A DNA stretch of 64,000 bases. It comes from Candidatus Poribacteria bacterium. GTDB taxonomy: Bacteria > Poribacteria > WGA-4E > WGA-3G. Below are positions 8,869 to 40,251 of this stretch, piece by piece. Both the position numbers and the translations under genes were made by a program. Under the pieces are notes generated by a model. That model saw nothing but the letters and a program-made list of their open reading frames with translations. It searched no databases and was not told where the DNA came from. Numbering within the stretch: position 1 is the first letter of the stretch; each line of letters opens with the position of its first letter. The stretch lies in NCBI GenBank assembly GCA_022824265.1, contig JAJEAG010000021.1, positions 22,577 to 86,576 on the forward strand, given 5' to 3'.

Positions 8869-8874
8869 TCTGCT

Positions 8875-9211: not shown

Positions 9212-9242
9212 TCCCCCACGCTTTAGCAGGGGGAGTATGTCA
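9212..9242 (-). repeat. GC-stem hairpin element, copy 2 (TCCCCC-N11-GGGGGA followed by GTATGTCA on the + strand)
   Basis: It overlaps the TGA stop (9240-9242) of the MDH-like ORF. The stem type and 3' flank match copy 1. Confidence 0.5.
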
Positions 9243-13626: not shown

Positions 13627-13724
13627 AGTAAGTTGATAGCAGTACCTATCATCCTAAACAGTAGTACTCGCTGTATTGTGAAGCCACGCACGTATAACTT
13701 TGGACAATATCCAGCATTATATTG

Positions 13725-14273: not shown

Positions 14274-14316
14274 AAACGAATTTCCTTTCTGATATGAAAT
14301 TTTCAATCAAGATAGT

Positions 14317-15846
<1,530 letters not shown>

Positions 15847-18891: not shown

Positions 18892-19806
18892 TTAGCGAAG
18901 GACAAAACTGCCGCCATAGGTGTTGTCGATATAATCGTAAACTCTTTCGGATACACGACGTAGAATATTGGCACGTTGACCAACCCATGCACCAAAGGAT
19001 ATCTTGCGTCTGTACCTATTCGTTTTTGTTTTATCTTCAATTAAACCTGTAAAGACATAAGGTCTATGGTTACCTTTTGGATCACGCATGACAATAATAC
19101 CGCTATCTCCTATCAATCCGTAAACAGTTCCTGTTTTATTGAGGACTTTTGCAGATGAAGGTATACGTGTTTTTTTATAGATGTAATCCCCATTCGGGAG
19201 TTCAAAATAATACTTCATTTTGTCTGAGTGTGGAAGTTTATTATCCCACAAACGCACATAAAACTCATTCAGATCTCTGGCACTGGTTAGATTACGGTAT
19301 GTCCTCCCGTTTGCGGGTATATATTCAATAATCTTTGTATGCTTGAATGCAGGATAATTTGCTCTAAGTTTGCTGTTGACTTTGTAGGGACCACCTAAGA
19401 GTCGCATAAAATAGTTTGTTGATGTGTTTGAACTATACCGAATCATCTTTTTTAAATGTTCCCGATTTCGATTTGAATGATATAGTCTACCTTGTTTTAC
19501 TTCATGAAAATATACGAGCATCACAAAATTTTTCACTAATGAAGCAGCCATCATCTGACGGTTCTCATTAATTGAAACCAGTTTCTTTCCTCTTGTAAGA
19601 TCATAAACGACAAAACTCGTACGTTCTGTTGAAGCCAATGTGCCTTTACGTCTGAACTGTTTTATAACATCGTCAATCGTTTGTTCAAGTGGGGAATCAA
19701 TTGTTGGGTCATGTGCTGCCTGAATCTCTGTAATCGGACCAAGTAAGACACAGAATCCACAGCAGACTAATAATCCGATAATTCTTTTAAAATATACATT
19801 TATCAC
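18892..19806 (-). CDS. Exported serine hydrolase, class A beta-lactamase / DD-peptidase-like
   Basis: It has a signal peptide, an 'ASLVK' (SxxK) motif and 'NKTGT' (KTG). Confidence 0.65.
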   Translation of the reverse strand: MINVYFKRIIGLLVCCGFCVLLGPITEIQAAHDPTIDSPLEQTIDDVIKQFRRKGTLASTERTSFVVYDLTRGKKLVSINENRQMMAASLVKNFVMLVYFHEVKQGRLYHSNRNREHLKKMIRYSSNTSTNYFMRLLGGPYKVNSKLRANYPAFKHTKIIEYIPANGRTYRNLTSARDLNEFYVRLWDNKLPHSDKMKYYFELPNGDYIYKKTRIPSSAKVLNKTGTVYGLIGDSGIIVMRDPKGNHRPYVFTGLIEDKTKTNRYRRKISFGAWVGQRANILRRVSERVYDYIDNTYGGSFVLR

Positions 19807-19903: not shown

Positions 19904-21445
19904 TTATTGAATCGGTAAACGGTAACAAGCTGCTTCTCGACTGTTTCGTACAAGTAGATAATTTCCTACAAGTGCTGGGTTGTTCCATGTCTGTCCATTT
20001 ATTGCGGAATACCGTGCAAGTTCTTTATGTTCGTCAGGGTTTGGTTCTATTAGGACGATATCACCAGATTCAGTTAGTACCAACAGGACATCAGATATTA
20101 GGAGTGTTTGTCCATGTCCATAACGACCACGTTTCCATTGCCGTGTACCGTCTGCAGGATTCACACATGCGAAGATACCGTCATCAAGTCCATATATATA
20201 ACCTTCGTAATAAATGATGGTGGTAAATTTAGCTTTAAAGTAGATACTTTCCCATAAAAGCTTAACGTTAAAATCTGCAGATGAGTTACTTCTGGTAATA
20301 TGAAATAATTTTGCCCCAATACCATAAGCAGATGAGACGAATAATTTATCTCCAGGAAGCGGCGTTGGCTGTGTTGCAATTTCTACACTTGCAGCGGGCC
20401 ACTTTTGTTTCCAAAGGAGTTCACCAGATGAAGGTTCATGTGAGGTTACAAGACCATCGTCGAACAATAGCACCTGTTCTGTTCCAGCAAAGGTAGCAAG
20501 TAGAGGGGAACTATATGCACTTTGAATTCTTTGTCCTGTCCATGCGATATTGCCAGTAACTTTGTCATACGCTACTGCCCCTCCAGCACTCACAATTACA
20601 AGTTCATCAAGAACGAGAGGGGAAACACTTACACCCCATGGCGGTGCAGAAGCCTTGTTTTCTTCAAATATATTGGTAGACCAAATTTGTTCTCCAGTTT
20701 CAAACTGCAAACAATTTAGAATACCAGTTCCTCCCACAGTGTAGACACGGTCTCCGTCAATAGTCGGTGTTGCCCGCGGACCAAGTTGACCAAGTGCAGT
20801 ATAATATCGTGTTTTATCCTTGTGCGTCCACTTTTCTTCACCGGTATGTAGGTCATAGCATACAACCTTTTCCCATTCATCTTCTTGTTCCTGTGTAATT
20901 GCAGAATCACCGACAACTGCATAACTTGACCATCCCGCACCGATGGGATGTCGCCATATTAATTCTGGTGGATTGTTTTTCCAATCAGTGTCGAGTTTAA
21001 TTCCTGTTACTATAGCATTCCTGTTAGGACCAAGGAATTGTGGATAATCTGTCAGAGACTTGTGTGATGAGTTTTGTATTTGTGCAAAAGTGCTGTGGGG
21101 TTCTCCGCGCCAACGGAGTTTAAATTGTGGGACAAGGTCACCACTGAACCCATTAAATTGAAATAACGTTACAAAGGAAACGATGATTAGAAGGAATACA
21201 GTGAAACCGAGTAATTTTATTCTCCAAGTCAGACGTGATAATACTAACAACCACATTATTCCCAGAACAACCATAAAAAAAAGAAGTAACACAGAGAGTG
21301 CAACTTTATCTTGACGATGACCTGCATCACGTAACCACACAATACCGATCCCAAGTATGGTAAGACCGATAATGATCAATAGGGGCCACAATCGTATGCT
21401 TTTATTTTTCTGGGGCATGAACGGAAACTCTACTTTACGAAACAA
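19904..21445 (-). CDS. Membrane-anchored PQQ-like / BamB-like beta-propeller repeat protein
   Basis: Three N-terminal hydrophobic helices are followed by repeated 'G.VY..' and 'W...' propeller blade patterns typical of PQQ-like repeats. Confidence 0.65.
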   Translation of the reverse strand: MFRKVEFPFMPQKNKSIRLWPLLIIIGLTILGIGIVWLRDAGHRQDKVALSVLLLFFMVVLGIMWLLVLSRLTWRIKLLGFTVFLLIIVSFVTLFQFNGFSGDLVPQFKLRWRGEPHSTFAQIQNSSHKSLTDYPQFLGPNRNAIVTGIKLDTDWKNNPPELIWRHPIGAGWSSYAVVGDSAITQEQEDEWEKVVCYDLHTGEEKWTHKDKTRYYTALGQLGPRATPTIDGDRVYTVGGTGILNCLQFETGEQIWSTNIFEENKASAPPWGVSVSPLVLDELVIVSAGGAVAYDKVTGNIAWTGQRIQSAYSSPLLATFAGTEQVLLFDDGLVTSHEPSSGELLWKQKWPAASVEIATQPTPLPGDKLFVSSAYGIGAKLFHITRSNSSADFNVKLLWESIYFKAKFTTIIYYEGYIYGLDDGIFACVNPADGTRQWKRGRYGHGQTLLISDVLLVLTESGDIVLIEPNPDEHKELARYSAINGQTWNNPALVGNYLLVRNSREAACYRLPIQ

Positions 21446-24726: not shown

Positions 24727-25749
24727 CTAATTCTCAATTTTTAGGTATCCCCAGAATGTGCGATATTTATCCATTGCTGCTACATTTAAACTATCTGTAG
24801 TAAATTCTTCAACAGTAGGAAGAATTTGGGGACCAAGACCTTCAACAACACCACCTACAGCATAAATTTTTCCGTTGGCTATTCCTGATCCTAAGAAAAC
24901 ACGGGCAGTTGGCATATCTGTGCTTTTCTCCCATGTATCTGTTAACGGATTATACATTTCAACTGTTGCTATTCCAGGACCTTGCACAACAGGTGCCCCA
25001 CCAATAGCATAGATTTTTGAATTTGCAATACTTACTGCCAATGCAGTTCGGGGAGTTGGTATATTTGCTTTTTTTGTCCATGTGTCTGTGTTAGGATCAT
25101 ATTCCTGTACTTCTTTAACAAACGGACCGACTATACCACTGACTCCGCCAATTAGGTATATTTTATCCCTATATTCTGCTGTAGCCATCCCTGAACGAGG
25201 GTCTGGCATATTTGCTTTTTTTGTCCATTCGTCTGTGTTTGTGTCATAGACTTCAACAGTTGATAACACTGGACCAACATTCATCGCAACGCCACCGAAT
25301 GTGTATATTTTCTCATCTACGGCAACTGCCGAGAAAAATGAACGTGGCGTAGGCATATCGGCTTTTTTCACCCACGTATCCTTACTCGGGTCATATACTT
25401 CTACTGTACCAAGTGCAGGATTTTGTCCATCCCATCCGCCAATTGCGTAAATTTTACCATCCACTTCACAGGAAACAACCCCTGCTCGTGGAGATAGCAA
25501 ACTGGATTTCTGACTCCACCTATCAGTTTTTGGGTTGTATACCTCAACACTGTCCATCGGGTCTGCAAGCATGCCACCAATAACATATATCTCATCGCCA
25601 AGAGCAGAAACGGAAAAAAACAATCTCGGATTCACCATATCTGCTTTCTTTTCCCATTCTTGGGCATTGACGTTATTAATAAAAATAAAAAATGTAAAAA
25701 TGCTAAAAAACAAACTTAATTGTACACCTAAAATAAAATATCTTTTCAC
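24727..25749 (-). CDS. Exported Kelch-repeat beta-propeller protein
   Basis: A signal peptide ('FINNVNA|QE') is followed by six repeats of the type 'R......V.DGKIY.IGG......L..VE.YDP..D.W'. Confidence 0.85.
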   Translation of the reverse strand: MKRYFILGVQLSLFFSIFTFFIFINNVNAQEWEKKADMVNPRLFFSVSALGDEIYVIGGMLADPMDSVEVYNPKTDRWSQKSSLLSPRAGVVSCEVDGKIYAIGGWDGQNPALGTVEVYDPSKDTWVKKADMPTPRSFFSAVAVDEKIYTFGGVAMNVGPVLSTVEVYDTNTDEWTKKANMPDPRSGMATAEYRDKIYLIGGVSGIVGPFVKEVQEYDPNTDTWTKKANIPTPRTALAVSIANSKIYAIGGAPVVQGPGIATVEMYNPLTDTWEKSTDMPTARVFLGSGIANGKIYAVGGVVEGLGPQILPTVEEFTTDSLNVAAMDKYRTFWGYLKIEN

Positions 25750-25778
25750 TTAATTCCTCTTTTCATCTTTAAATTATA

Positions 25779-26372
25779 TTAATGTTTGTAAATTGTAACT
25801 TCCATACCATCACGTCTTGGTGGTCCTGGATTGTTTCCGCCATCACGTCTTCGTCGCCAACTTTCAAACCAGTGTGTTTCTGATTCATAATTAGATCTGA
25901 CATGGTCGAGATAATCTGCCATCTGATCAGCTCTACCGACATTGTCAGCGACAATCGTTGCGGGATTCGTCAATCGAGATTCAATTGCTTTGTAACAGGC
26001 AAAATAACCGTCCTTGTTGTTGTCAAGAAAAAGAAAATCAACAGGTTCTTCAATCGTTTTTAGGACTTCTGAGGCATCTCCAATTCGAGAGTCAACAAGG
26101 TCAGACACACCAGCCTTTTCAAAATTTGCACGTGCACGTTGTGCGTTATCCTCTTCTATCTCAACTGTTATTAAACGTCCTGCACCAATCTTTTTCAGTT
26201 CACGTAATATCCACAATCCTGAATAACCGATGGCAGTACCACACTCTACAATAAGTGATGGTTTCGCCTTTTCAACACAACCTGCTAACAGTTTCGCCTT
26301 TTGTGGTCCCAACATCGGTATTCGTTCAGCACGACACTGTTCCTCAACTTCATTTAAGACATTATCAAACAT
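25779..26372 (-). CDS. Class I SAM-dependent O-methyltransferase (catechol/caffeoyl-CoA OMT-like)
   Basis: Motifs 'IVECGTAIGYSGLWI' (motif I) and 'DFLFLDNNKDGY', typical of O-methyltransferase family 3. Confidence 0.75.
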   Translation of the reverse strand: MFDNVLNEVEEQCRAERIPMLGPQKAKLLAGCVEKAKPSLIVECGTAIGYSGLWILRELKKIGAGRLITVEIEEDNAQRARANFEKAGVSDLVDSRIGDASEVLKTIEEPVDFLFLDNNKDGYFACYKAIESRLTNPATIVADNVGRADQMADYLDHVRSNYESETHWFESWRRRRDGGNNPGPPRRDGMEVTIYKH

Positions 26373-26469
26373 AAATCCTCCTTAAAATATAATTTATATG
26401 TAAAGTAAACGGTTAAAATACCTGTGCATGTGCAATAAAACAATAGGATAGGATGTTGTTGATAGGAGA

Positions 26470-27630
26470 TCATTCAGATATGATATTATCAAAGGATTCT
26501 TTGTCATTTTCATGATCTGCCAGAGTATAATGTTCCCAGAGTGTCTTTGGGACACGATTTAAGGCAAATATTCCATAATCATTCCCATTTGGTGAACGAA
26601 CAATCGTATGGATATGATTTGGGCTGCCCCCACTCCTGCCTTCGTCATTGAATTCAATCCAAACAGCAGGGTTAAAAACGCGGTAATAAATAGAATCCTT
26701 ATCTGTCGTCCCACCAATCCATACAAAATAGGTGTCATTTATTCCTTCATCAATATCTTTCATCCATATATCTGCGAACTCAGATTCAAGATTATAGACA
26801 TAGGATTTAATTAGTTTACGTAAGTTCTCTTTTTGTTCATCGTTCATCTCTGATGCTTTTAAGCCGATTCCCACAAAATCAGAGTAATCATAATCAAGGT
26901 ACGGGTCCGTAGTGCTACCCGGACCTACTTTAAGTCCACGACGACCATCTGTCTGTATCGTTTTTTCTTTTTGTTCTGAATCAAGACTATCAAGTAAGGT
27001 TAATGCATTTGTTCTTTCACCTTCCAGCACTATTTCACCGTCAAAGATCGTTGGTGAAGTTCCCAAATGGGTTGGAGCGATTGAGACCTCATCCCCATGC
27101 ACTAAAAGGTTTAACCCAAGATGATGTCCGTCCAACTGGAATCCCCATGAACCGTCTGTCTCTGGATTTCCAAATAATGCTATATAATATGGACGTGAAT
27201 TCCAAAAATTAGGATTAATTTCACCTATTGGTGTTTTGGATTTTTGGGTGATAAGTAAAATTTTAGTGTAACCTTCATCACTCAAGAACACTTTCAGAAC
27301 TTCATGAAACAGAATCAATTGATCAGTTGATAATTCACTGAAACCAATTCCTCCACGATCAAAGTTATTAGATGGTGGTAAATTAGACCATGAATATGAT
27401 TCTTTATGTCCAAGTGGAAAGGAGGCATCGGTAAGAAGTTCTTCGCTTAGTGTGTTGCGAAAACTTTTCATGGTAGATGCCAATGTTACTATTGACGGTT
27501 TTTCAGATATGTCGGCGATCTCTTTTGCTTTTTCACCGTTACTTTCTGCAGAATCCAAAATGTTCAACGTAAATGATAAAATACATGCTATTAAAATTAG
27601 AATGAGTAAAAATAGAGTTTGACGTAACAT
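26470..27630 (-). CDS. DUF3500 family exported protein
   Basis: Motifs 'WGFQLDGHHLGLN' and 'YYRVFNPAVWIEFNDE....NHIHTIVR' match my recollection of DUF3500. The start is set at the ATG at 27630, which has an AAAGGA RBS and gives a signal peptide. Confidence 0.65.
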   Translation of the reverse strand: MLRQTLFLLILILIACILSFTLNILDSAESNGEKAKEIADISEKPSIVTLASTMKSFRNTLSEELLTDASFPLGHKESYSWSNLPPSNNFDRGGIGFSELSTDQLILFHEVLKVFLSDEGYTKILLITQKSKTPIGEINPNFWNSRPYYIALFGNPETDGSWGFQLDGHHLGLNLLVHGDEVSIAPTHLGTSPTIFDGEIVLEGERTNALTLLDSLDSEQKEKTIQTDGRRGLKVGPGSTTDPYLDYDYSDFVGIGLKASEMNDEQKENLRKLIKSYVYNLESEFADIWMKDIDEGINDTYFVWIGGTTDKDSIYYRVFNPAVWIEFNDEGRSGGSPNHIHTIVRSPNGNDYGIFALNRVPKTLWEHYTLADHENDKESFDNIISE

Positions 27631-27980
27631 AGAAATCCTTTCAAATCCCAAATCATTAATGCAGTTATTGCGAAATCCTTCATATCATATAAAACACTAT
27701 CGTTATTTTAGTCATATCAAAAATAAATTAGTTCGTAGTTTCTTGAATAATAATCAGTGGAAGAATTTATAATATGATCTCATATCCTTTGGTACGCATA
27801 GGTTTATCTATTTCGCACAATTGATATAATTATTGGTTTTAGATTCAACCGTAGACGTGAAACCTACATAATAAATTAAGTTGACAATATGCCGAGGTAA
27901 ATTGTCATCTACTTGTATGTTATACCATTTCTAATAAACAAAGTCAAAGTGCCATTTTCGTGGAATACTTATAGGATCTA

Positions 27981-28018
27981 CCTCGAATCAACGCCAATTG
28001 CGTTTATGGCATTCCCGG
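27981..28018 (+). repeat. Short interspersed repeat 'GAATCAACGCC...GGCATTC' (family R5)
   Basis: Related copies lie at 28201-28243 (+) and 37060-37100 (-), with a partial copy at 37115-37128 (-). Confidence 0.7.
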
Positions 28019-28200
28019 TTATAAACGTCTTGCCTTATGAATTGTGATTTTTTTTCTAATGAAATTGTGACCTTTTATTAAGTCACAATGACGTGATGAA
28101 TCCAGTCAGGACAAGGAATGTGACGCGATTTTTGATTTTTTTTATTTGTTCCATTTTAGTTCTGTTTTATTCAAGATATAAAGACTACACACCTGTCATC

Positions 28201-28243
28201 CCTCGGAATCAACGCCAAATACGCTTGTGGTATTTGGCGGGAC
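28201..28243 (+). repeat. Family R5 repeat copy
   Basis: 'CCTCGGAATCAACGCCAAATACGC..' aligns with 27981-28018 and with the reverse complement of 37060-37100. Confidence 0.7.
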
Positions 28244-28255
28244 TTTAGTGTTTAT

Positions 28256-28339
28256 GTCGTAGGTCGCTTCGCTCGCTCTGACCTACCAGGCTTGATGTGA
28301 GAATGCGGGCGAGGAAACCTCGCCCTACGATAGTGTAAT
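28256..28339 (-). repeat. Composite palindromic repeat of about 80 nt (family R4), made of two hairpins
   Basis: Its reverse complement aligns along its length with 48370-48441. The shared hairpins are 'TATCGTAGGGGCGAGG-N3-CCTCGCCC' and a 'GAGCGAGC' hairpin. Confidence 0.8.
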
Positions 28340-28479
28340 ACCAATTCTATAAATGATTTTCCCATTTGGATTGGAATGTCCGAGGCGCAATGAATTGCGC
28401 GACTACGAACACGTTTTTTGTTAATGAAAAGTTATTATTTACAAATGGTATAATTATGAATTTTACCATAATCTTCATT

Positions 28480-28666
28480 TAGTTGTTTTTTCGGTTTTTG
28501 TGTTTTGGTATGTCGTCATTGGTTTCCTCGATTTTGCAAGTTCTGTGTTGGATGTTGGGTTATATTATACTTGAGGGCCGTTTGGTTTTGTAGTGTTATT
28601 GCGTTTGATAACAATATATATCCAATATGTTTGATGTCTGTTTCAGTTTTTTGGTTTAGTTTTCAG
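28480..28666 (+). repeat. TG-rich, C-poor interspersed repeat, copy A
   Basis: It aligns with 44191-44440 (same strand) and, more distantly, with the reverse complement of 52605-52725. I hand-counted 17 C in 28481-28660 (180 nt). Confidence 0.85.
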
Positions 28667-28962
28667 CAGGGTTATTTAGTTTTATCAATTTATAGTTGAC
28701 GAGTTGGACTAATAGTTAGATTTGAATTGCATCGGTGCCTACTACCATGTTGAGTTCCTAAGTATTACCTTACCTACATTACATTAACGTTTGTGATAAA
28801 ATGCATCAGAAAAACCGAAAACTAAATAATCCTGAATACAAAAAATGCCTATAGCAAAAAAAAGTGAAATGTGGTATACTCATCACACATTATTAGATTT
28901 GCCTCCGGAATATGTAATAACATATAATTCCTAATCAAGTTATAGTAGGAAAGATAAAAAAT

Positions 28963-29790
28963 ATGCAATTATCAGAAACACAAATCGCTCAATTTCGTGA
29001 AAATGGTTACCTTGCAATTGATGGCTTTTTTTCCGCTGTAGAGGCGGAAGCACTGCGATTAGAATTGGAACGGATATACAATACTGAACTGGAAAAAGGA
29101 ACTGGCATCAATTGCGCGGTCCAAGAGGATGGCACCAAACGCGATAACGAAGGCGAACGTCAAAATCTACAAGTTATCCCTCTAAACAACCGCAGCGACT
29201 TGCACAAAGGGTTACCATTTCATCCCAAAGTTGTTTCTACGGTGAAGCAGCTTATCGGTGATGAATTTATGCTGGAACTTGACCAAGCGTTTTGGAAACC
29301 ACCGAAAGTAGGTATAGGGACCAGTTGGCATCAGGATAACGCTTATTTCAAAATTGCGGATCCTTTGCGTGGGACTGCTATGTGGATTGCAATTCACGAT
29401 GCAAACATTGAAAATGGGTGTATGCATGTTATTCCCGGTAGCCATCGTGAATCTTATGAACATTATAAGGATCCATTGAGCGACCACCATATTCGCTGTG
29501 ACCCTCCTGAAGAACGTGCTGTGCCAATTGAGTTGAAAGCAGGTGGAGTGCTATTCTTCTGTTATGGTGTTGCCCATTGCACTCGGTCAAACCTATCCGA
29601 TAAGGAACGTGCAGGTGTTGCATTGCACTTTCTACATAACGATTTCGGTGGTAAAGAACTATGGGAACGGAATAATTCAACAAAACCAATGATTACAGGA
29701 CACTTGGCAACTGGCGGGGAAGAAGAATTTGGTGAGAAATATGAGGGAAGATGGCAAGAATTGGTAGACAACATACTTACAACTACATAA
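28963..29790 (+). CDS. PhyH family dioxygenase
   Basis: Motifs 'QFRENGYLAIDGFF', 'SWHQDNAYF', 'VIPGSHRES' and 'LFFCYGVAHCTRSN'. Confidence 0.85.
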   Translation: MQLSETQIAQFRENGYLAIDGFFSAVEAEALRLELERIYNTELEKGTGINCAVQEDGTKRDNEGERQNLQVIPLNNRSDLHKGLPFHPKVVSTVKQLIGDEFMLELDQAFWKPPKVGIGTSWHQDNAYFKIADPLRGTAMWIAIHDANIENGCMHVIPGSHRESYEHYKDPLSDHHIRCDPPEERAVPIELKAGGVLFFCYGVAHCTRSNLSDKERAGVALHFLHNDFGGKELWERNNSTKPMITGHLATGGEEEFGEKYEGRWQELVDNILTTT

Positions 29791-30054
29791 ATAATATAAT
29801 TGTAAAGACACTTTGATTAACTCTTGAATAAGAACTCAATATGACTTGTCGGTTTCATTTCCGTAGTGGATATGTTGATTTTCTGTTAACTTGGATAAGT
29901 ATCTTTTCTTCTTTCATATTGTTGTATATCACTTTGGCATATTACAATAATCTAAAGTCGGACATTGATTTTTAGTCATTAACTTCTAAAACTTGTGAAT
30001 ATAGATTGATACCAATAAAGTATAACAGTAACTATCAATAGGAGGGTTATCCCA

Positions 30055-30843
30055 ATGTTACGAACGATACTTGTTTCTGTCTTAGTAACGCTTATGTTGA
30101 TTACGGTCGGAACTGTACTCGCGGCACTTGAAGACGATCTCGTAATCTACTTCACTTTTGACGATATTGATGGTAAAACGGTTTCTGATAGTTCAGGAAA
30201 CGGACTGGATGCAAACATTATCGCAAATACAGAAATCGTTGATGGTAAAAATGGAAAGGCAATCAAAATTACTGCTGAAGGAGCAGATTGTGTCAACGTT
30301 CCTGCTGATGATAAACTCAAAATCAGTGGCGAAATAACCATGGCAGCTTGGGTTTGGATGGAAGCGTGGAATAACGACTCACAATGGTTTGATAAAAACT
30401 GCCATAACGGTGGAGAACATACATCCTACGGTATCGGTGTTTTTGGCGATGGAAATAGTTTTAATATGTTTCTGGGATCAGATCAAAACCGTCAAACTTT
30501 GAACAAACCACACAACCTTAAAGCAAAAACATGGCATTATGTTGTAGGAATTTACGACGGTGATGCTATGAAAGTTTATGTTGATGGTGACCTCGCGGTA
30601 GAAGATGCTAAAAAGTTTAACTTCACTGGTACCAACGACCAAGACCTACGAATCGGATGTTCCAAAGATCGACCACAGTATACATTCGAAAATGGTATGA
30701 TTGACGATGTAGCATTATGGAGCCGTGCGATTAGTGAAGCTGAAATTAGTCAAGCAATGGGTGGAGACCTTCTTGCTGTTACAGCTAAAAACAAAGCAGC
30801 GACAACATGGGGAAGCATTAAGCAAAGAACTATCACATATTAA
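30055..30843 (+). CDS. Exported LamG / concanavalin-A-like lectin domain protein
   Basis: It has an AGGAGG RBS and a signal peptide. 'LDANI...DGKNGKAIKI....CVNVP' and 'WHYVVGIYDG..MKVYVDG' are typical of LamG_3-type domains. It carries the C-terminal 'TTWGSIKQR' tag. Confidence 0.8.
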   Translation: MLRTILVSVLVTLMLITVGTVLAALEDDLVIYFTFDDIDGKTVSDSSGNGLDANIIANTEIVDGKNGKAIKITAEGADCVNVPADDKLKISGEITMAAWVWMEAWNNDSQWFDKNCHNGGEHTSYGIGVFGDGNSFNMFLGSDQNRQTLNKPHNLKAKTWHYVVGIYDGDAMKVYVDGDLAVEDAKKFNFTGTNDQDLRIGCSKDRPQYTFENGMIDDVALWSRAISEAEISQAMGGDLLAVTAKNKAATTWGSIKQRTITY

Positions 30844-30867
30844 TTGTTAAATTCATCAGATGTAAAC

Positions 30868-30912
30868 GGCACAGATACGAATTCGTAAGGGAATGTATCT
30901 GTGCCTTCTTCT
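30868..30912 (+). terminator. Putative intrinsic terminator
   Basis: A perfect 11-bp stem (GGCACAGATAC / GTATCTGTGCC) with a 16-nt loop is followed by TTCTTCT. Confidence 0.55.
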
Positions 30913-30929
30913 ATAAAAGGATATAGAAT

Positions 30930-31979
30930 ATGATTAAAATCGGAATTGTAGGTATTGGTTTTATGGGAATGATACACTACTACGGTATCCAACGTGGTAA
31001 GGGTGCTGAAGTAGTCGCGATATGTACACGTGACCAGAAAAAACTTGATGGTGATTGGACCGGAATACAAGGTAATTTCGGACCGCGCGGTGGGCAGGAA
31101 GACTTGTCAAACGTCCGAAAATACAACGATATTGACGAAATTCTTGCTGATAAGGACATTGACTTTGTTGATATATGCTTACCTACGCACCTTCATAAAT
31201 CTGTGAGTATGGCATCTATAAAAGCAGGAAAACACACGCTTGTTGAAAAACCAATATCTATTGATATTGACGATGCAAACGAAATCGTTGAACTTGCTGA
31301 AAAAACAGACAAAGAGTTCATGGTTGCACACGTACTTCCCTTCTTTGCAGAATATGCGTATGCTAAGCAAATCGTAGAAAGTGGGGAGTATGGACAATTG
31401 CTCGGTGGACATTTCAAACGTGTCATCTCTAAACCGAGTTGGTCGCGTGATGTTGCTGATTTAGAAAAAAGTGGAGGTCCTGGCATTGATCTGCACATAC
31501 ACGACAACCACTTTATTCAACTCCTCTGTGGTGTTCCGGATGCTGTGTTTTCACAAGGGAAAATAGCAGGTGGTAATTATTTAGATTATTTGACAACACA
31601 ATACATCTATAATGACAAAGAACTTACTGTCAGTTGTTCTTCAGGTGCTATTTCCCAAAAAGGCAGAGCCTTTTCACACGGTTTTGAGATTTTTCTTGAA
31701 AAAGCAACGTTACTCTTCGATTTTTCAACACTTGCAGGTGAACCTACTACTGCAGTCCCATTGACACTTATCACTGAAGACGGTATAGTAGAACAAGTAG
31801 ATTTGGGTGAAGTTGACCCAATTGATGCATTTACTGCAGAAATTCAATATGCAGTTGATGCTATCAATAACAACGATAAACCTACTGCTTTGTCTGGTGT
31901 AGGTGCAAGAGACGCGCTTTTGCTTTGCTACAAAGAGGCTGAATCCGTAAAAACTGGCAAGATTGTAGCAGTTAAATAG
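30930..31979 (+). CDS. Gfo/Idh/MocA family oxidoreductase
   Basis: Motifs 'IGIVGIGFMGMIH', 'DICLPTHLH' and 'GKHTLVEKP'. Confidence 0.85.
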   Translation: MIKIGIVGIGFMGMIHYYGIQRGKGAEVVAICTRDQKKLDGDWTGIQGNFGPRGGQEDLSNVRKYNDIDEILADKDIDFVDICLPTHLHKSVSMASIKAGKHTLVEKPISIDIDDANEIVELAEKTDKEFMVAHVLPFFAEYAYAKQIVESGEYGQLLGGHFKRVISKPSWSRDVADLEKSGGPGIDLHIHDNHFIQLLCGVPDAVFSQGKIAGGNYLDYLTTQYIYNDKELTVSCSSGAISQKGRAFSHGFEIFLEKATLLFDFSTLAGEPTTAVPLTLITEDGIVEQVDLGEVDPIDAFTAEIQYAVDAINNNDKPTALSGVGARDALLLCYKEAESVKTGKIVAVK

Positions 31980-31993
31980 AAACACTTCAGGTA

Positions 31994-33130
31994 ATGAACC
32001 AATTTTATTCCATCAATCCAATTGGAGAATTATATGTTCCCGTTGAATATCGTGACGCTGTTTCTGCGCGCGGTAGTGTAAAGTTATTTGCACATCATGA
32101 ATTAGATAAACTTGGTCGTATCTTTACACATATTCAACGTGGTGGTGTCGCAGTTGTCCAAGGGGATTGGACAAAGATAATCAATTTGATGGAGTATGTT
32201 GAACAACATAAAAAGGAATTGTCCAACACATCAAAAGGTAACAGATCTAAAAATAACAGAAATAGGAGAGAACGTCACAATCCGAAACAGGAGCGAGAAG
32301 TCGCATTATCAAAGTTGATGTGTTGGGCAGATAAGAATGGTAAACTACAAGTCGACCCTACACCCGATATGCCATTTTTATTGGAACTGATTGGTGAAAA
32401 TCCAGACGCTAATCAGGACAGTCCGTTTCTTGTGTCCATAACTAAAATTCAACGTATCCAACGGGCACTTGAGGAAAGTTATGACTTAAATGCACTCAAT
32501 GCCTCCCTCGTTGCATCCGAAAATGTGCTCGCACCGCGTTCTCAGGAAACAATAGAATGTTTTCAGGAAGCGTTACAAAGTCTACCTCGTGAGAACTTAC
32601 CGAGTAAACCTATTGTTGCAGATATTGGTTGTGGTAGTGGTTGCTTGACACTACTGGCACATCAGGAGTTAGAAGATACCTTTGAAATATATGCATCTGA
32701 CATTCTCCCTGAAGCTACTGCTATAACAAAAATAAACTGTCATCGTATACTATCTGATCCACATAATGTCAAAGTCATACATCCCGGTGATTTGTTTGAA
32801 CCGTTTCCACAGCAACAGTTTGATATAATCATCTTCAATGCTCCATGGGTAGTTGCACGTGTCCGAAACAGATCCGAATTGGCAATTCACGATGAGAAAC
32901 AGCAGACTTTGAGACGTTTTGTTGAACAAGTTCCCAACTACATAAAACCAGATGGATTTCTGCTATTAGGTTACGCTGATGCATCAGGTCCCAAAGCAAT
33001 TGCTAACCTTGAAACGTTAATTGAGGATGCTGGTTTTGTGTGCAATACTGTGGTTAAGAGACGTGTCGCAACACATCGGTCAAAACGTAAGTGGGAACAT
33101 ATTCAGGTTTATGTATTAGGTAGGAAATAG
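31994..33130 (+). CDS. HemK/PrmC-like N-methyltransferase domain fused to an unrecognised basic N-terminal domain of about 170 aa
   Basis: Motifs 'VLAPRSQETIECFQEAL' (compare PrmC 'VLIPRPETE'), 'VADIGCGSGCL' (motif I) and 'IIIFNAPWV' (NPPY-type motif IV). The N-terminus contains 'KGNRSKNNRNRRERHNPKQ'. Confidence 0.65.
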   Translation: MNQFYSINPIGELYVPVEYRDAVSARGSVKLFAHHELDKLGRIFTHIQRGGVAVVQGDWTKIINLMEYVEQHKKELSNTSKGNRSKNNRNRRERHNPKQEREVALSKLMCWADKNGKLQVDPTPDMPFLLELIGENPDANQDSPFLVSITKIQRIQRALEESYDLNALNASLVASENVLAPRSQETIECFQEALQSLPRENLPSKPIVADIGCGSGCLTLLAHQELEDTFEIYASDILPEATAITKINCHRILSDPHNVKVIHPGDLFEPFPQQQFDIIIFNAPWVVARVRNRSELAIHDEKQQTLRRFVEQVPNYIKPDGFLLLGYADASGPKAIANLETLIEDAGFVCNTVVKRRVATHRSKRKWEHIQVYVLGRK

Positions 33131-33178
33131 AAAAAGAGCACTATCTATTCAACATTCCAAATAGATAGTGCTCTTTTT
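33131..33178. terminator. Bidirectional intrinsic terminator between convergent genes
   Basis: A perfect 19-bp stem (AAAAAGAGCACTATCTATT / AATAGATAGTGCTCTTTTT) with a 10-nt loop. The A and T tracts give a U-run on both strands. Confidence 0.8.
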
Positions 33179-33219
33179 AGTTTGAAAAGATGTTTCTGAG
33201 AAAAATGGTCAAAGACTAA

Positions 33220-34011
33220 CTAATAGCGTTGTTTGACATTTCCCCAAGTGGTTGTCATTTTTCCTTCTGCTTCAACAGCAGTAAGCGTTTGTTCAAATCC
33301 ATCATTCATGAGTGATTCAATATCCGATTGCTCCAAAGCCACACTGAATATAGCAACTTCATCAATTAACGCATTTCCAAATCTTCCTGCACAACAAGTA
33401 TCTCTACCAATAAAAACGGGTCCAGTATCAGCGTCAAGCGGGGTCTGATCAATATCCATTTCACTCGCAACTTCTGCATCAATGTAGATGATCCATTTTC
33501 CTGTAGCACTATCAAATGTTGTTGTATACAAGTGCCACTGGGTAATATCATCGGGACCGGTTGACTGATCATTCCAGCCACCAGGTTTATTCCAACATCC
33601 ACCATTGCAAACTGCCCACGCCATAACCTTCGTATTTGTGTTGGGATGCAGAATATAAGCATTCCGTTTTTCAACAAACCAGCCATGCTGATTCCAAGTT
33701 TCTGTCTTACTTTTTACCCAGATAGACACAGTGATAGCATCCCGCGGGTTCTCATGTCCAGGTACTTCTACATACGCACCACTTCCGTCCAATTCAAGTG
33801 CTGTACCAAATTGTCCATCTACCCAATTGGGATCTCCCTGTACAGTACCATCCAACTCATTCCCCGACATATCACCAGCAACATTGCCTGACCCTTCGTC
33901 AAACAGCCAAGCTCCGACAATGGTCTCTGGATCAATAGCAGAATCACTTGAAACAATTAATAAACTAAAACATAGACACAAAACAATTGCAAAAATCATA
34001 CTGAATTTCAT
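33220..34011 (-). CDS. Exported LamG-like domain protein (paralog 2)
   Basis: The start is set at the ATG at 34011, after GGAGGA. It has a signal peptide and is highly similar to 34158-34949. It carries the C-terminal 'TTWGNVKQRY' tag. Confidence 0.8.
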   Translation of the reverse strand: MKFSMIFAIVLCLCFSLLIVSSDSAIDPETIVGAWLFDEGSGNVAGDMSGNELDGTVQGDPNWVDGQFGTALELDGSGAYVEVPGHENPRDAITVSIWVKSKTETWNQHGWFVEKRNAYILHPNTNTKVMAWAVCNGGCWNKPGGWNDQSTGPDDITQWHLYTTTFDSATGKWIIYIDAEVASEMDIDQTPLDADTGPVFIGRDTCCAGRFGNALIDEVAIFSVALEQSDIESLMNDGFEQTLTAVEAEGKMTTTWGNVKQRY

Positions 34012-34157
34012 CTGAAATTCCTCCAATTAACTTAAGAGTGTAATGTGATAAAATAAAATCTAAGTATATTTTCCTACACGACAAAGCAATGTAAGATAAT
34101 AGAATGTGTCCCTTTATACGCTGATAACACCATATAACACAATAACATATTAAACAA

Positions 34158-34949
34158 CTAATAGCGTTGTTTTACATTTCCCCATGTGGTCGTCATTTTA
34201 CCTTCAGCATCAACATTAAGAACTGATTGTGAGAGACCATTTTTCATGAGCGACTCTATTTCTTTTTGTTCTAATGCTACACTAAAAATAGCAACTTCGT
34301 CAACTATCGCATTGCCAAACCTACCCGCGCAACAAGTATCTCTACCAATAAAAACAGGTCCATTATCCGGATCAATTGGTGTCTTGTTGATAACCATTTC
34401 ACTCGCAACTTCTGCATCAATGTAAATGAACCATTCTCCAGTATTGCTGTCAAAAGTTGTCGTATACATGTGCCATTCAGTAATATCGTTGGGACCGACT
34501 GACCTATCGTTCCAACCACCAGGTTTGTTCCAACACCCACCATTGCAAACTGCCCACGCCATAACCTTCGTATTTGTGTTGGGATGCAGAATATAAGCAT
34601 TCCGTTTTTCAACGAACCAACCGTGTTGATTCCAAGCAGCTGTGTTACTTTTCACCCATATTGAAACTGTTATAGCTTCTTGTGGATTAGCATGAGCAGG
34701 TATTTCAACATAAGAAGAACTTCCATTGAATTCAAGGGCATTTCCAAACTGTCCATCTACCCATTTTGGATTGTCATGTAGGACACCATCCAAGTCATTT
34801 CCCGAAGCATCGCCAGCAGTATTACCTTTATTCTCATCAAACAACCAGGCTCCGACAAGTGTCTCTGGATCGAATTCTGCATCGCTTGATAGAATTAGAC
34901 ATCCAAAACCAAAAAATACAAGAATCGTAAATAAAACAAAATATTTCAC
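34158..34949 (-). CDS. Exported LamG-like domain protein (paralog 3, tandem duplicate)
   Basis: The start is set at the GTG at 34949, after GGAGGGA. It shares long identical peptide blocks with the neighbouring paralog, for example 'WNQHGWFVEKRNAYILHPNTNTKVMAWAVCNGGCWNKPGGWND'. Confidence 0.8.
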   Translation of the reverse strand: MKYFVLFTILVFFGFGCLILSSDAEFDPETLVGAWLFDENKGNTAGDASGNDLDGVLHDNPKWVDGQFGNALEFNGSSSYVEIPAHANPQEAITVSIWVKSNTAAWNQHGWFVEKRNAYILHPNTNTKVMAWAVCNGGCWNKPGGWNDRSVGPNDITEWHMYTTTFDSNTGEWFIYIDAEVASEMVINKTPIDPDNGPVFIGRDTCCAGRFGNAIVDEVAIFSVALEQKEIESLMKNGLSQSVLNVDAEGKMTTTWGNVKQRY

Positions 34950-35446
34950 CGGAATTCCCTCCATTTAGACCTTAACTTATAAGGTTTCGCTTCAATCAGT
35001 AACTTACACATATATTTTCGTATTATTATTATGCCGTAAATCCAATTCGAAAAAAGTAATGTGTGAACTTAGTAACTTTGCCTATCGGTTTTATCTAAGA
35101 GATAATATTCACAACTATAGTATGAATTTTTTGAAGAAATCAGAGAATTGATTTTCCACTAACATGTTTGGTAGGGGAAGTAAACGTTAAATGAATTCAC
35201 TCAATGAATTATACCAACACTATCTTATCAAATACGACATTTTCTGTCAATAAAATTATTATGTATCTTTAGTTTTTAGTACATCTGAAACAATATGAAG
35301 GGCTAAAGAATAGTTTAACCGTTTAGTCCGTAGGTTGGAGCGAGTGTAGTTATCTCCAAAACGTATAGTTTTATTAACTACCTATGTTGAAGGTCATTTT
35401 GCTTGCTTCCGACCTACAAGTGTCAAATCGGACTTTGCACACTCAA

Positions 35447-37293: not shown

Positions 37294-38202
37294 TCATTTC
37301 CCATCTTCAACTTCTTCTGCAACAATTTCATAAGCCTGTAATTCATAAGATGTGACATCTGGTTGTGTTCGGGGATCCTCAGGGAAATCAGAATCTGTTA
37401 TAAGATTGACTATTATCTTTTCTGATTCTTGGTGATATTTTACAATACCAACATTCGGTGCTAACCAAATTGTAGTAACAGATTCACCAAGTTCTTCCAG
37501 ATCTGAATTAGGATTAGAGGGAGTCAGTTCAGTTTCAGTTTGGAATTGGATTTTCAGACAATCTTCAAATGTGCCAGCAGTAACATCTACGGTTTCAGTG
37601 CCGAGGATTATCCCAGTTTCTTGTATATCCAATGTAATCGTCGGATATTCTTGAGTGCGTTGAACTTCCGGTGATCCCTTAATGTCCATAGTCATTGAAA
37701 TAATTGCCTTGATGTTTATAGAATCCCATTCTACATCTGGAGTCACACCCAATGGAAGTAGGAAGATGTTCTCGTCAGCTTCTGTCTCCACATCATAGGT
37801 GATGCTGATAGTGGCATTCACTCCAGGGACAGTCTCTGCCAGCTCTGAAAGCGAATCTATCTCTTTACTAAGCCGTGCTTTCAAAGCATTTTCTACCTCT
37901 TCCCCAACAAGAGATGAGACCCATTCATCACTGACATGGAACAGATACGGCATAAAATGTTGGTCAAAATCAACCCAGTCCTTCAATTCAGGATCATAGC
38001 TGAATCCGTAATATGTCACACCAGATTTTTCTTCACCTTCAACGACTTGTCGGGTCAATTCGTTTCCATCTTTATCTTCATAAACCCAAGAACTTCCAAG
38101 CGTGCTTGGAAAATATAACTTTGCTGTTTCATTACCACTCAGTGTTGCACTTAGAATAGTGAGAAGTAGGATTGAAAAAGTGGTACTTAATCGCTTTAAC
38201 AT
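37294..38202 (-). CDS. Exported hypothetical protein (302 aa)
   Basis: It has an AAAGGAG RBS and the signal peptide 'LLLTILSATLSG'. It is acidic and I recognise no family. Confidence 0.65.
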   Translation of the reverse strand: MLKRLSTTFSILLLTILSATLSGNETAKLYFPSTLGSSWVYEDKDGNELTRQVVEGEEKSGVTYYGFSYDPELKDWVDFDQHFMPYLFHVSDEWVSSLVGEEVENALKARLSKEIDSLSELAETVPGVNATISITYDVETEADENIFLLPLGVTPDVEWDSINIKAIISMTMDIKGSPEVQRTQEYPTITLDIQETGIILGTETVDVTAGTFEDCLKIQFQTETELTPSNPNSDLEELGESVTTIWLAPNVGIVKYHQESEKIIVNLITDSDFPEDPRTQPDVTSYELQAYEIVAEEVEDGK

Positions 38203-38382
38203 TTTAATTCTCCTTTATCAGTTTGATAAAAAACTTCAGATTGATCCTTATCCTCTCCTTGTATTCCGCCCAATAGTTTTTTGCACGTTTTATATCTCTG
38301 TCTTGTGAGGACTTGTCACCACCACATAGCAAGAGAATAACATAATTCTATATGGATGTCAATGGTTTTGGAATTGTCTAAA

Positions 38383-38430
38383 CCAGGATGAGAGGGTTGG
38401 GGTTAGGAAACCCCAACCCTCTCATCCTGG
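38383..38430. repeat. Perfect 22-bp-stem palindrome with a 4-nt loop (CCAGGATGAGAGGGTTGGGGTT-AGGA-AACCCCAACCCTCTCATCCTGG)
   Basis: Read directly from the sequence. It lies 87 nt downstream of the stop of the minus-strand gene 38518-39591 and may act as a terminator or REP-like element. Confidence 0.9.
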
Positions 38431-38517
38431 CCATCTATAAATCCTGCAAATCCTGGTTCAGACAATGTTGATGTTGATAAAGTCAACGATACCCCGTATG
38501 AAGATTAACTTATCAAT

Positions 38518-39591
38518 TTATCCGTTTTGTCTCCGCTGCATTTCGGTGTTGACGGCGCGAATACCCATCGCCGTCTCGTTAATCTGATTGTTTGCGTGGT
38601 CGCGAAATCCGTACTTGCGTGCGTGGTTCTTAATGTAGGCACCACACAGATGGTATCCGACGCATTGCGGAATATCCCAGAGCGCGTCCATCACTTGGCG
38701 ATAGTGGTCTACATCATGCAAGCGGTCCGCTGTCGGGGGCCATCCGGCATCACCGTGGGTGCGTATATGCCCCGCCGCGTCTGCCAGGAGCACCGGTTTG
38801 TCTGCGAAGTCTGCCCAGTGCCGCATCTTCGTGGTGATATTCTCTACTGTCCCAAAACATTGAAAACTGAGCACATCAACGTAGGGCAGTGCCGCATGGA
38901 CCACCTCTTCTGGAAGTGCTGCGTTTGCCTCCCATCGGTCACCGAGGATTAAGTGGTTCGGGTCGTAGCGGCGGATAACGTCATGGGTGACCCTATAGTA
39001 GCGTTCGGCAATCGCAGAGAGTTCACGGCGGCCTGCCGCTGATTCGAGCAGGTCTGGATCGACTAACGACCCACGCCATTTCGTGTCAGGCGAGGTATGC
39101 ACCCACTGCGGACAATCGCAGTAGAAGTAACCAATCAGTTTCGGATCATCGCGCAAGCGGGAGCACACATCGCGGGCAACGTAGTCACACCACTCCTCAA
39201 AATCGGCACGCATCAGGTCGGGCATACGCACCTCAACTTGCCATTGATGTGCCTCGGTGAAAGGGAGCAGGTGGCAGTAAGGCATATCCGCCCATTGGTA
39301 TTCTTCATAAGTAAAGGGGCGCGAATGTCGATGGTAACCTTGCGTGATAATTACGACCTCTTGGGTCCAGCCAATCGTGTTAAAGCCCCAATCCCGCAAG
39401 TCATTGGCGACTGCGCGTAGCCAATGTTCATGGCTGTTGCCGAACTCTCGGTTCCATACATCGTCCGAGTCTGTATACCGCAACGCGGCCGAGTCGATAT
39501 GGTTCATGCCGATGGACCAGAATCGCGCACCTTCCGGTGTGATAAACCACCAACGCCCGTCTCGCTTCTCAATCGTGTAACAGTCTGCCAT
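38518..39591 (-). CDS. Glycoside-hydrolase-like (TIM-barrel type) protein; the function call is tentative
   Basis: The start is at the ATG at 39591, after an AGGAG RBS. The 'RWWFITPEGARFWSIGMNHID' N-terminus and 'GFNTIGW' resemble GH-clan proteins. G+C is clearly higher than in the neighbours. Confidence 0.5.
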   Translation of the reverse strand: MADCYTIEKRDGRWWFITPEGARFWSIGMNHIDSAALRYTDSDDVWNREFGNSHEHWLRAVANDLRDWGFNTIGWTQEVVIITQGYHRHSRPFTYEEYQWADMPYCHLLPFTEAHQWQVEVRMPDLMRADFEEWCDYVARDVCSRLRDDPKLIGYFYCDCPQWVHTSPDTKWRGSLVDPDLLESAAGRRELSAIAERYYRVTHDVIRRYDPNHLILGDRWEANAALPEEVVHAALPYVDVLSFQCFGTVENITTKMRHWADFADKPVLLADAAGHIRTHGDAGWPPTADRLHDVDHYRQVMDALWDIPQCVGYHLCGAYIKNHARKYGFRDHANNQINETAMGIRAVNTEMQRRQNG

Positions 39592-39793
39592 GCTGTTGAC
39601 GCTCCTTTCATCTTCTTGACAATCTTTAACCATTGTAGCAGTTTACACGATTTGTGACGATCTTTTCATGTAAATGAGGCTATTTAGTTAGCAAAGATTT
39701 TGATATGTTCTATCACAGATGTTATCCGTGTTCTTCCGTGTTTTCCGCTATTCTGACCACCCATCGATTCAGATATGAAAAAGTTAGAATTGC

Positions 39794-39961
39794 TCAATGA
39801 TCGCTAAAACCCCTATATAGTAGACATTTCCACTGATAAAGACTGAGGCTTTTCAGATGCCGATAAAGCGTAGCAGTCGGGATCGCCAAGGCAGTTGCCA
39901 ATTGATGCGGATTATAGAGTCCAAACAGATGACCGGTTGAAGCAAAAGCAAGACTTCTCAC
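39794..39961 (-). pseudogene. Short remnant ORF with a helix-turn-helix ('QLATALAIPTATLYRHLK'), possibly a decayed recombinase, transposase or regulator gene
   Basis: The 55-codon frame starts at a GTG. An out-of-frame 27-codon ORF with a perfect AGGAGG RBS (ATG at 40041) runs into it, which suggests a frameshifted gene. Confidence 0.3.
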
Positions 39962-40251
39962 AGTTGTGATGTCATCTTTCGGAAGTTAGAATAGAGAAGT
40001 ATTTGAAAATACATAACTGATTTGATAAGATGTTGTTGCATGGGATAGCCTCCTAAAATGTAATAGGTGAACTTTTATCATTTAGGATGATATCTCATGC
40101 ACTAAAAGTCAAGAAAAAATCAAAACAAAACGCATTTTCATAGCGTTTTACATGCTAAATGTTGATTGCTATCAGCTTAAACACTATTATGAGAAATATC
40201 AGCTAATTTATTTTTTAATTTTCATATATCGTCCCATTTCAGGTTTATAGG

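Follow-up and report, generated by a model that had tools for sequence, protein, structure and literature searches.

Four exported proteins with a common C-terminal tag

The window analysed here, a stretch of 64,000 nucleotides from a Candidatus Poribacteria bacterium (assembly GCA_022824265.1, contig JAJEAG010000021.1, positions 22,577 to 86,576 of the forward strand), encodes four exported proteins that end in variants of one short tag: a six-bladed Kelch propeller and three Laminin_G_3 proteins, here called LamG1, LamG2 and LamG3 (Table 1). The open reading frames (ORFs) and C-termini are exactly as described in a first-pass annotation made from the letters alone, and its division of the carriers between two unrelated folds agrees with Pfam, which recognizes six Kelch repeats in one protein and Laminin_G_3 in the other three. 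LamG2 and LamG3 are tandem duplicates (73% identity); LamG1 is 27% identical to them overall, yet the tails align without a gap. Within the window, a six-frame regular-expression scan and a 20-position hidden Markov model (HMM) of the tail find the motif in these four ORFs only, and in each of the four the motif ends 3-6 residues before the stop codon.

All four proteins also have the N-terminal signal peptides that had been ascribed to them: in each, a basic residue precedes a hydrophobic segment with an AxA-like end, as is typical of signal peptides, and AlphaFold draws this region as an N-terminal helix. The true start of LamG2 is probably the ATG at residue 6 and not the TTG from which its length is counted in Table 1. 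For LamG1, 120 orthologue clusters are listed at 63-96% identity, and all that carry names are Candidatus Poribacteria. The tail is kept in every one, down to 63% overall identity; residues V242, K247, T250, T251, W252, G253 and K256 are 93-100% conserved, and the linker and the final six residues are variable.

Table 1. Tagged genes of the window, with their C-terminal tags and signal peptides (positions are those of the window; pLDDT, predicted local distance difference test)
Feature	Position	Strand	Description
Kelch gene	24727..25749	-	Exported six-bladed Kelch propeller, 340 residues, tagged; Pfam Kelch_1 9e-72, six repeats
Kelch tag	24730..24789	-	LNVAAMDKYRTFWGYLKIEN, residues 321-340; deviant "Kelch-type" version; tail HMM 31 bits; pLDDT 41-43
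Kelch signal peptide	25663..25749	-	MKRYFILGVQLSLFFSIFTFFIFINNVNA, putative cleavage before QE; from sequence; model helix 2-28
LamG1 gene	30055..30843	+	Exported Laminin_G_3 protein, 262 residues, tagged; Pfam PF13385 3.7e-26
LamG1 tag	30772..30840	+	LAVTAKNKAATTWGSIKQRTITY, residues 240-262; tail HMM 45 bits; pLDDT 34-38
LamG1 signal peptide	30055..30123	+	MLRTILVSVLVTLMLITVGTVLA, putative cleavage before AL; from sequence; model helix 2-19
LamG2 gene	33220..34026	-	Exported Laminin_G_3 protein, 268 residues from TTG start; Pfam PF13385 1.9e-20
LamG2 tag	33223..33282	-	TAVEAEGKMTTTWGNVKQRY; regular expression and tail HMM, 37 bits
LamG2 signal peptide region	33937..34026	-	…MKFSMIFAIVLCLCFSLLIVSSDSA, putative cleavage before ID; from sequence
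LamG3 gene	34158..34964	-	268 residues, tandem paralogue of LamG2; Pfam PF13385 3e-19
LamG3 tag	34161..34220	-	LNVDAEGKMTTTWGNVKQRY; regular expression and tail HMM, 38 bits
LamG3 signal peptide	34878..34964	-	MEGIPVKYFVLFTILVFFGFGCLILSSDA, putative cleavage before EF; from sequence

Definition and physical character of the tag

The tag was defined from 398 unique 19-mers, with positions counted from the tryptophan as 0. Its consensus of about 17 residues is L-A-V-[SEDT]-[PA]-x-[GDN]-K-L-[AT]-T-T-W-[GA]-x-[IL]-K (as a peptide, LAVSPKGKLATTWGNIKQR), in which Leu (-12) and Ala (-11) are followed by Val (-10, 97%), Ser, Glu, Asp or Thr (-9), Pro (68%) or Ala (19%) at -8, Gly, Asp or Asn (-6), Lys (-5, 96%), Leu (-4), Ala or Thr (-3), Thr (-2, 90%), Thr (-1, 87%), Trp (0), Gly (82%) or Ala (17%) at +1, Ile or Leu (+3) and Lys (+4). 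The invariance of Trp (0) and Lys (+4) is set by the way in which the sequence set was defined, but the conservation of Val (-10) and Pro (-8) is independent evidence, because the search pattern left both positions unconstrained.

Past Lys (+4) there are 0-12 variable, Arg-rich residues, and in most sequences the final lysine lies 0-6 residues from the C-terminus. The last residue of 468 tagged sequences may be R, Y, Q, K, F, N, H or others, so that the terminal aromatic residue remarked on in the first-pass annotation does not belong to the tag. The comparison drawn from it with outer-membrane beta-signals, in which a beta-barrel protein ends in a conserved aromatic residue (usually Phe), fails as well, the extreme C-terminus being variable in both length and residue and the carriers being soluble beta-sandwiches and propellers rather than barrels.

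The tag is polar (mean Eisenberg hydrophobicity -0.06), and its best 10-residue Kyte-Doolittle window reaches only 0.48; it therefore contains no transmembrane (TM) helix. The hydrophobic moment is 0.46 at beta periodicity versus 0.22 at alpha periodicity, which, together with the beta-branched Thr, Thr and Val and the fixed Pro and Gly, suggests from composition an extended or hairpin peptide.

Selection on the peptide and position outside the fold

The four tail-coding DNAs of the window differ at third codon positions, and their similarity ends directly after the stop codon. Among 168 distinct tag DNAs from related loci, all synonymous codons occur at the invariant residues (four for Val(-10), six for Leu(-4) and four each for Thr(-2), Thr(-1) and Gly(+1)). 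Because synonymous codons vary and no similarity extends past the stop, the tag is a peptide-level feature under purifying selection and not a DNA repeat. Scans of the window found no Rfam family and no tRNA.

In AlphaFold2 models built from orthologue alignments, the LamG1 sandwich has a pLDDT above 90 to about residue 238, and an AlphaFold model of the Kelch propeller exceeds 95 for residues ~32-318, its last blade being closed by the N-terminal strand and not by the tail; the two tails (residues 242-262 and 321-340, respectively) score 34-43. The contrast with the well-modelled domains indicates that the tail is a disordered appendage in two unrelated folds, lying outside both globular parts of the models, in agreement with the earlier placement of the tag after the globular domain.

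Distribution among proteins and lineages

A profile that contains the tail retrieved at least 235 clusters at 50% identity (E≤1e-3), a search in which all 40 alignment columns were modelled and which is therefore biased towards the LamG-ending helix and is no measure of fold diversity. For a fold-blind scan, K-L-[AT]-T-T-W-G-x-I-K was back-translated to a degenerate DNA pattern and run against 185,579 species, each represented by one genome, in which an estimated handful of matches are expected by chance. At least 118 loci match, so that the tag is found well beyond the paralogues of the window; about 105 of the matches listed are labelled Poribacteria, and most of the others are unclassified metagenome-assembled genomes (MAGs). 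The same pattern had no match in 2.9 million viral contigs. In the 118 listed loci, 109 ORFs are recognized by the tail HMM, and all 109 matches end 0-12 residues before the stop codon; since all four tags of the window do likewise, the tag is confined to C-termini.

When the tails were removed, the tagged proteins among the matches listed fell into 19 body clusters, of which more than a dozen have no detectable relationship to one another; the tag is thus modular and independent of fold. LamG_3 proteins form the majority. The other clusters comprise 3-keto-disaccharide-hydrolase/DUF1080 proteins, F5/8 type C-like proteins (a weak match, below Pfam's cutoff), a CarboxypepD_reg-containing C-terminal fragment (30.3 bits, just under Pfam's cutoff of 32.3), the Kelch propeller of the window, and about ten clusters without any Pfam match. 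Carriers outside the clustering include an esterase-like ORF (L034), a PD40 fragment (P0224) and a pseudo-trypsin-like pair (L016/L101). Most carriers are small, single-domain proteins of 210-400 residues. Two candidate carriers were discarded: P0135, whose four pattern matches belong to a propeller repeat that has Phe where the tag has Trp, and P0174, a read-through into the next gene.

The enrichment among exported proteins that the first-pass annotation anticipated is pronounced: one crude signal-peptide predictor, applied in the same way to both sets, finds a signal-peptide-like N-terminus in 137 of 142 tagged ORFs versus 185 of 498 untagged ORFs (Fisher p=6e-42). Lipobox exclusivity has no statistical support (p=0.26), and the regular-expression matches to a lipobox are cysteines within the hydrophobic region of the signal peptide.

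The great majority of tagged loci, though not all, are poribacterial. A complete Oligoflexales chromosome (L101, OZ245333.1, 5656-7051) and a MAG labelled "Pseudomonadota" (L016, 915-3155), for which the name RHO2 points to a sponge, both contain two tagged pseudo-trypsin-like genes in synteny, with 46-49% identity. In one of the L101 genes, ~450 bp that look non-coding separate the body from the tag; they may represent an insertion, or the gene may be a pseudogene. Horizontal transfer of the tag among sponge symbionts is plausible. Some tagged Poribacteria MAGs have names that suggest deep-sea water, plume or sediment (OC6_3000m_MAG_233, UWMA-0232, Meg22). The esterase-like ORF mentioned above (L034, 2560-3761, minus strand) has an apparent frameshift and then ends in …SVHPRGKLATTWGEIKGSR before the stop; its 3.7-kb contig was binned as Deltaproteobacteria, but is probably a mis-binned poribacterial contig or carries a sequencing frameshift.

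Kelch propellers with alternative C-terminal modules

The tail of the window's Kelch protein (…MDKYRTFWGYLK…) deviates from the consensus, but is still a true tag: P0356, the closest relative of the protein, ends in …LNVAPLDKRLTSWGNIK, and about 35 of the 120 best Kelch relatives, all single-domain proteins of 320-360 residues, end in the relaxed form [AS]V[SEDN][PA]x[GD]K[LF][PA][TS]xWGx[IL]K. Homologous propellers end instead in the C-terminal domain (CTD) of the type IX secretion system (T9SS; P0293, P0334, P0355, P0367), in dockerin-like modules (P0288, P0333, P0369) or, in others, in a LamG domain. By analogy, this choice of anchors on one kind of propeller offers the best indirect evidence that the tag functionally resembles sorting or docking modules.

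A further group of Kelch relatives (P0347, P0352, P0398 and, in part, P0284; also L119, 8001-9737) joins an extracytoplasmic function (ECF) sigma-70 domain, comprising regions 2 and 4, to one TM helix, a periplasmic Kelch propeller and the tag. As these fusions do not leave the inner membrane, they speak against a signal purely for secretion across the outer membrane and in favour of a motif that interacts on the periplasmic side. They may serve as sensors that act through the partner of the tagged cargo. On locus L119, four tagged Kelch genes (819-1997, 7950-9734, 11635-12690 and 13393-14613) share a contig with a WD40 protein (2061-3533, plus strand) that bears a classical T9SS-type CTD (…SGVYFYLMEAGSFRATKKMVIIR); the tag and the CTD are therefore distinct, coexisting signals.

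Comparison with known C-terminal signals

Neither the whole proteins nor, at E≤10, the isolated tails match any sorting-domain model of NCBIfam or Pfam (PEP-CTERM, LPXTG, GlyGly-CTERM and the T9SS CTD included), and a search of PDB sequences with the tail profile was equally without a match. The literature yielded nothing relevant on the motif strings (DNA primers and the like) and, on sorting signals of Poribacteria, nothing relevant beyond Kamke et al. 2014 (PMC3909097), who reported TIGR04183-like tails on poribacterial repeat proteins and no Por secretion genes. The tag is thus neither confined to the paralogues of the window, nor equally frequent on cytoplasmic proteins, nor a copy of a described sorting domain, the three outcomes that the first-pass annotation had named as speaking against it.

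The T9SS type A CTD (TIGR04183/PF18962) resembles the tag in being C-terminal, free of TM segments and present on Sec-exported proteins of many folds; it takes the same position on homologous Kelch propellers, and CTD-like domains are found in Poribacteria too (PMC3909097; L119). The CTD, however, is a folded beta-sandwich of ~70-100 residues that ends in K-x-x-x-K-type strands, whereas the tag is a disordered segment of ~17 residues with another motif. The tails (~20 residues, pLDDT <50) match neither TIGR04183 nor PF18962 by HMM, and the true CTDs, which sit on other proteins (P0293, P0334, P0355 and the WD40 protein of L119), are clearly distinct.

The tripartite signals processed by sortase-like enzymes (LPXTG/sortase, PEP-CTERM/exosortase, GlyGly-CTERM/rhombosortase, MYXO-CTERM and others) are likewise short, lineage-restricted and numerous per genome, place a signature motif followed by basic residues near the C-terminus, and follow the same many-to-one logic. 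What the tag lacks is the hydrophobic TM helix by which all of them separate the motif from the basic cluster. The resemblance to PEP-CTERM (TIGR02595 and variants; no HMM match, no hydrophobic stretch) extends only to the basic residues past the motif, and the L-A-T-T-W-G of the tag is one residue longer than LPXTG, with neither TM segment nor HMM match. The distinction from PEP-CTERM and LPXTG-type anchors drawn in the first-pass annotation is accordingly upheld.

Dockerins, in pairing with cohesins, are also modular C-terminal appendages of a kind that would give unrelated cargo a common attachment, and dockerin-like modules replace the tag on Kelch homologues; they are folded Ca-binding modules of ~60-70 residues with duplicated EF-hand-like segments, unlike the tag, and PF00404 matches none of the four proteins or their tails. 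We know of no cohesin-like receptor in this system. The disordered epitopes read by folded periplasmic or TPR (tetratricopeptide repeat) receptors (the TonB box, the colicin TolB box, the C-terminal YxF of outer-membrane proteins sensed by DegS, and PTS1 read by PEX5) have in common with the tag a short conserved core, but their sequences are unrelated and they are N-terminal or read from the last residues, whereas the conserved block of the tag is internal to a variable tail. The last residues of the tag are conserved in neither length nor sequence, unlike a degron of PDZ or tail-specific proteases, which is recognized by its last ~3-5 residues and the free carboxylate, and the signal-peptide-like N-termini of 137 of the 142 tagged ORFs set the carriers apart from cytoplasmic cargo with bacterial microcompartment encapsulation peptides or encapsulin cargo-loading peptides.

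The tag does have the properties of the generic class of modular C-terminal sorting or docking tags: it occurs on unrelated exported proteins, lies outside the fold, is under selection and is restricted to a lineage. It is a member of this known kind, with no defining feature of any catalogued sorting signal among those tested.

Gene neighbourhoods

All ORFs of the 118 listed loci and of the window were clustered in search of a partner. The recurrent untagged neighbours are PhyH, Gfo/Idh/MocA, WD40, tetratricopeptide repeat (TPR), FG-GAP/ASPIC, DUF6785, ABC-2 and FGE-sulfatase proteins. Several were set aside as partners: PhyH, Gfo/Idh/MocA, FG-GAP/ASPIC, FGE-sulfatase and ABC-2 are simply large poribacterial families, and DUF6785/DUF6784, which looked overrepresented close to tags, comprises multiple paralogues at 30-40% identity whose genes are paired with those for PhyH. 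One member of the latter, a multi-pass membrane protein, is encoded in the window (49778-51697, minus strand), and its paralogues lie near tags in six other loci, often flanking PhyH.

PhyH and Gfo/Idh/MocA are the commonest neighbours of the tag in other Poribacteria (26 and 19 loci, respectively, among those listed). In the window, PhyH-like genes (356-1234, 6284-7180 and 28963-29790) and Gfo/Idh/MocA-like genes (16088-17134 and 30930-31979) interleave with the tagged genes. In combination with the DUF1080/3-keto-disaccharide-hydrolase cargo, these enzymes hint at glycan-oxidation loci.

WD40 proteins, another recurrent neighbour family, are represented in the window by a tandem pair with signal peptides (1686-4019 and 4042-6258, plus strand; 777 and 738 residues) that have no C-terminal tag and share the N-terminal motif AEDYT[QR]W[GE]LPEGAK.RL. 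Other features of the window include a gene for a protein of 513 residues with N-terminal TM segments and a BamB-like PQQ_2 beta-propeller (19904-21445, minus strand), which adjoins a gene for an exported protein of the beta-lactamase family (18892-19806); 1.3 kb without an ORF of at least 80 residues and without an Rfam or tRNA match, between DUF3500 and PhyH genes (27652-28962); and a segment with a GC content of 0.476, versus ~0.39 elsewhere (38001-40000), around an ORF of 371 residues with no Pfam match (38518-39633). This last segment may have been acquired recently.

Interpretation of the tag

We lean towards the view that the carriers have in the tag a disordered handle for docking or sorting, which a partner common to all of them reads in the cell envelope. 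The tag would be a modular short linear motif at the C-terminus of many poribacterial proteins that are unrelated, mostly small and exported by Sec. Once these proteins reach the periplasm, a single envelope component would bind the motif in all of them, in an extended or beta-hairpin form and perhaps by strand augmentation; binding would give all carriers the same localisation, either by docking or anchoring them at the envelope or surface or by handing them over to a common sorting step. The first-pass annotation, which had proposed a signal for sorting, attachment or secretion and not an element of the fold, agrees with the modularity of the tag, its ~19 body clusters and its position outside the fold; the beta-signal analogy has to be dropped from it, and a pure secretion role is disfavoured by the carriers tethered to the inner membrane.

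Several observations weigh against such a handle. AlphaFold drew short, low-confidence helices in the tails and not the extended or hairpin shape; the export figures come from the one crude predictor; and no protease, sortase-like enzyme or transporter is linked to the tag in the neighbourhoods of the 118 listed loci and the window. The neighbours that come closest to a candidate reader are TPR proteins. TPR domains are classic readers of C-terminal peptides, and a secreted TPR gene directly adjoins, and is co-directional with, tagged genes in 13 of 15 loci, in the order tagged gene(s), TPR and sometimes FGE-sulfatase and FG-GAP/ASPIC (CRTAC1-like). This gene order (L028, L032, L051, L052, L055, L069, L073, L084, L088, L094, L097, L103, L104, L105) reduces to about five independent contexts after synteny is taken into account, with two tagged families. 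The adjacent TPR proteins are divergent paralogues (median identity 32%) with generic TPR similarity only and no specific NCBIfam identity (PrsT 111-133 bits versus a cutoff of 312), and there is no TPR gene beside the four tagged genes of the window; they are therefore unlikely to be a single universal receptor, and are a lead rather than a finding.

Among the alternatives, a cleavable outer-membrane secretion signal, in effect a miniature analogue of the T9SS CTD that is read by its own translocon and then cut off, with the cargo perhaps joined covalently to the surface, is unlikely but deserves most attention. The carriers are Sec-exported, Kelch homologues elsewhere have T9SS CTDs or dockerin-like modules at the same position, and, since CTD-like domains but no genes for Por secretion were noted in Poribacteria (Kamke et al. 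2014, PMC3909097), the export route of the phylum is an open question. Such a signal is difficult to reconcile with the ECF-sigma-TM-Kelch-tag fusions, which remain anchored in the inner membrane, or with the coexistence of true T9SS-type CTDs and the tag on L119; 17 disordered residues, matched by neither TIGR04183 nor PF18962, are also far from a beta-sandwich of 70-100 residues, and the neighbourhoods link no translocon or peptidase to the tagged genes.

It is less probable still that the tag is a recognition site for a periplasmic Prc/Ctp-type protease with a PDZ domain, which would mature or turn over the carriers and subject the sigma fusions to regulated proteolysis. Sigma/anti-sigma-like hybrids of cell-surface signalling in Pseudomonas are processed by Prc and RseP, and the tag, which is C-terminal, disordered and periplasmic, is present on hybrids of this kind. 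PDZ proteases, however, read the extreme C-terminus, where the tagged proteins have 0-12 variable residues after an internal conserved block; no S41 or PDZ gene is linked to the tagged genes, and a degron common to ~20 unrelated lectin-like families under strong purifying selection is hard to explain.

There is little to recommend a direct anchor, whether a membrane-interface peptide like the amphipathic C-terminal anchor of PBP5 or an invariant lysine linked covalently to peptidoglycan as in Braun lipoprotein. The two invariant lysines, the invariant tryptophan (a residue typical of membrane interfaces), the Arg-rich variable tail and the closeness of the final lysine to the C-terminus would suit it, but the tag is too polar (Kyte-Doolittle 0.48 versus 1.01 for the PBP5 anchor, with the negative Eisenberg mean given above), the lysine is usually not terminal, no L,D-transpeptidase is linked to the tagged genes, and a lipid or peptidoglycan target leaves the invariant V-x-P…TTWG unexplained.

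A host-directed motif, read by sponge cells or matrix and spread among symbionts by horizontal transfer, is highly improbable. Poribacteria are dominant sponge symbionts (PMC3909097), the tagged syntenic pair is shared by the Oligoflexales chromosome and the RHO2 MAG, and the accession of that chromosome belongs to a long-read MAG series that also includes many of the Poribacteria loci. The tag is nevertheless not obviously restricted to sponges, given the MAGs named for deep-sea water, plume and sediment, and the sigma fusions tethered to the inner membrane cannot reach a host. Finally, an element of folding or oligomerisation, or a side effect of a DNA or RNA element that is conserved at the 3' ends of genes, has nothing but the position at gene ends in its favour and is effectively refuted by tails with a pLDDT <50 in both folds, by the presence of the tag in more than a dozen unrelated families, by the free choice of synonymous codons, and by the absence of conservation past the stop and of any Rfam match.

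Significance for the biology of Poribacteria

Poribacteria are among the most abundant symbionts of sponges and are uncultured, and the means by which their exported lectin-like and repeat proteins reach the surface or are kept there is an open problem. A single handle of 17 residues on hundreds of exported proteins, four of them encoded in 64 kb alone, provides a searchable marker: the tag peptide or HMM can serve as bait for the machinery, and LATTWGxIK as a diagnostic tryptic peptide for sponge metaproteomes. If dedicated machinery exists, the tag would represent a new architectural class of prokaryotic C-terminal sorting signal that is short, disordered and TM-less. More tentatively, and with the balance of probability somewhat against it, the tag could define a hitherto unrecognized, phylum-specific system of protein sorting and surface display in Poribacteria, with its own putative receptor, translocon or transpeptidase. 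If so, diderm bacteria would have in it their first known C-terminal sorting signal of Sec-exported proteins that is a short linear motif without a TM helix, and the system would handle a large share of the exported lectin-like, "eukaryote-like" proteome of these sponge symbionts.

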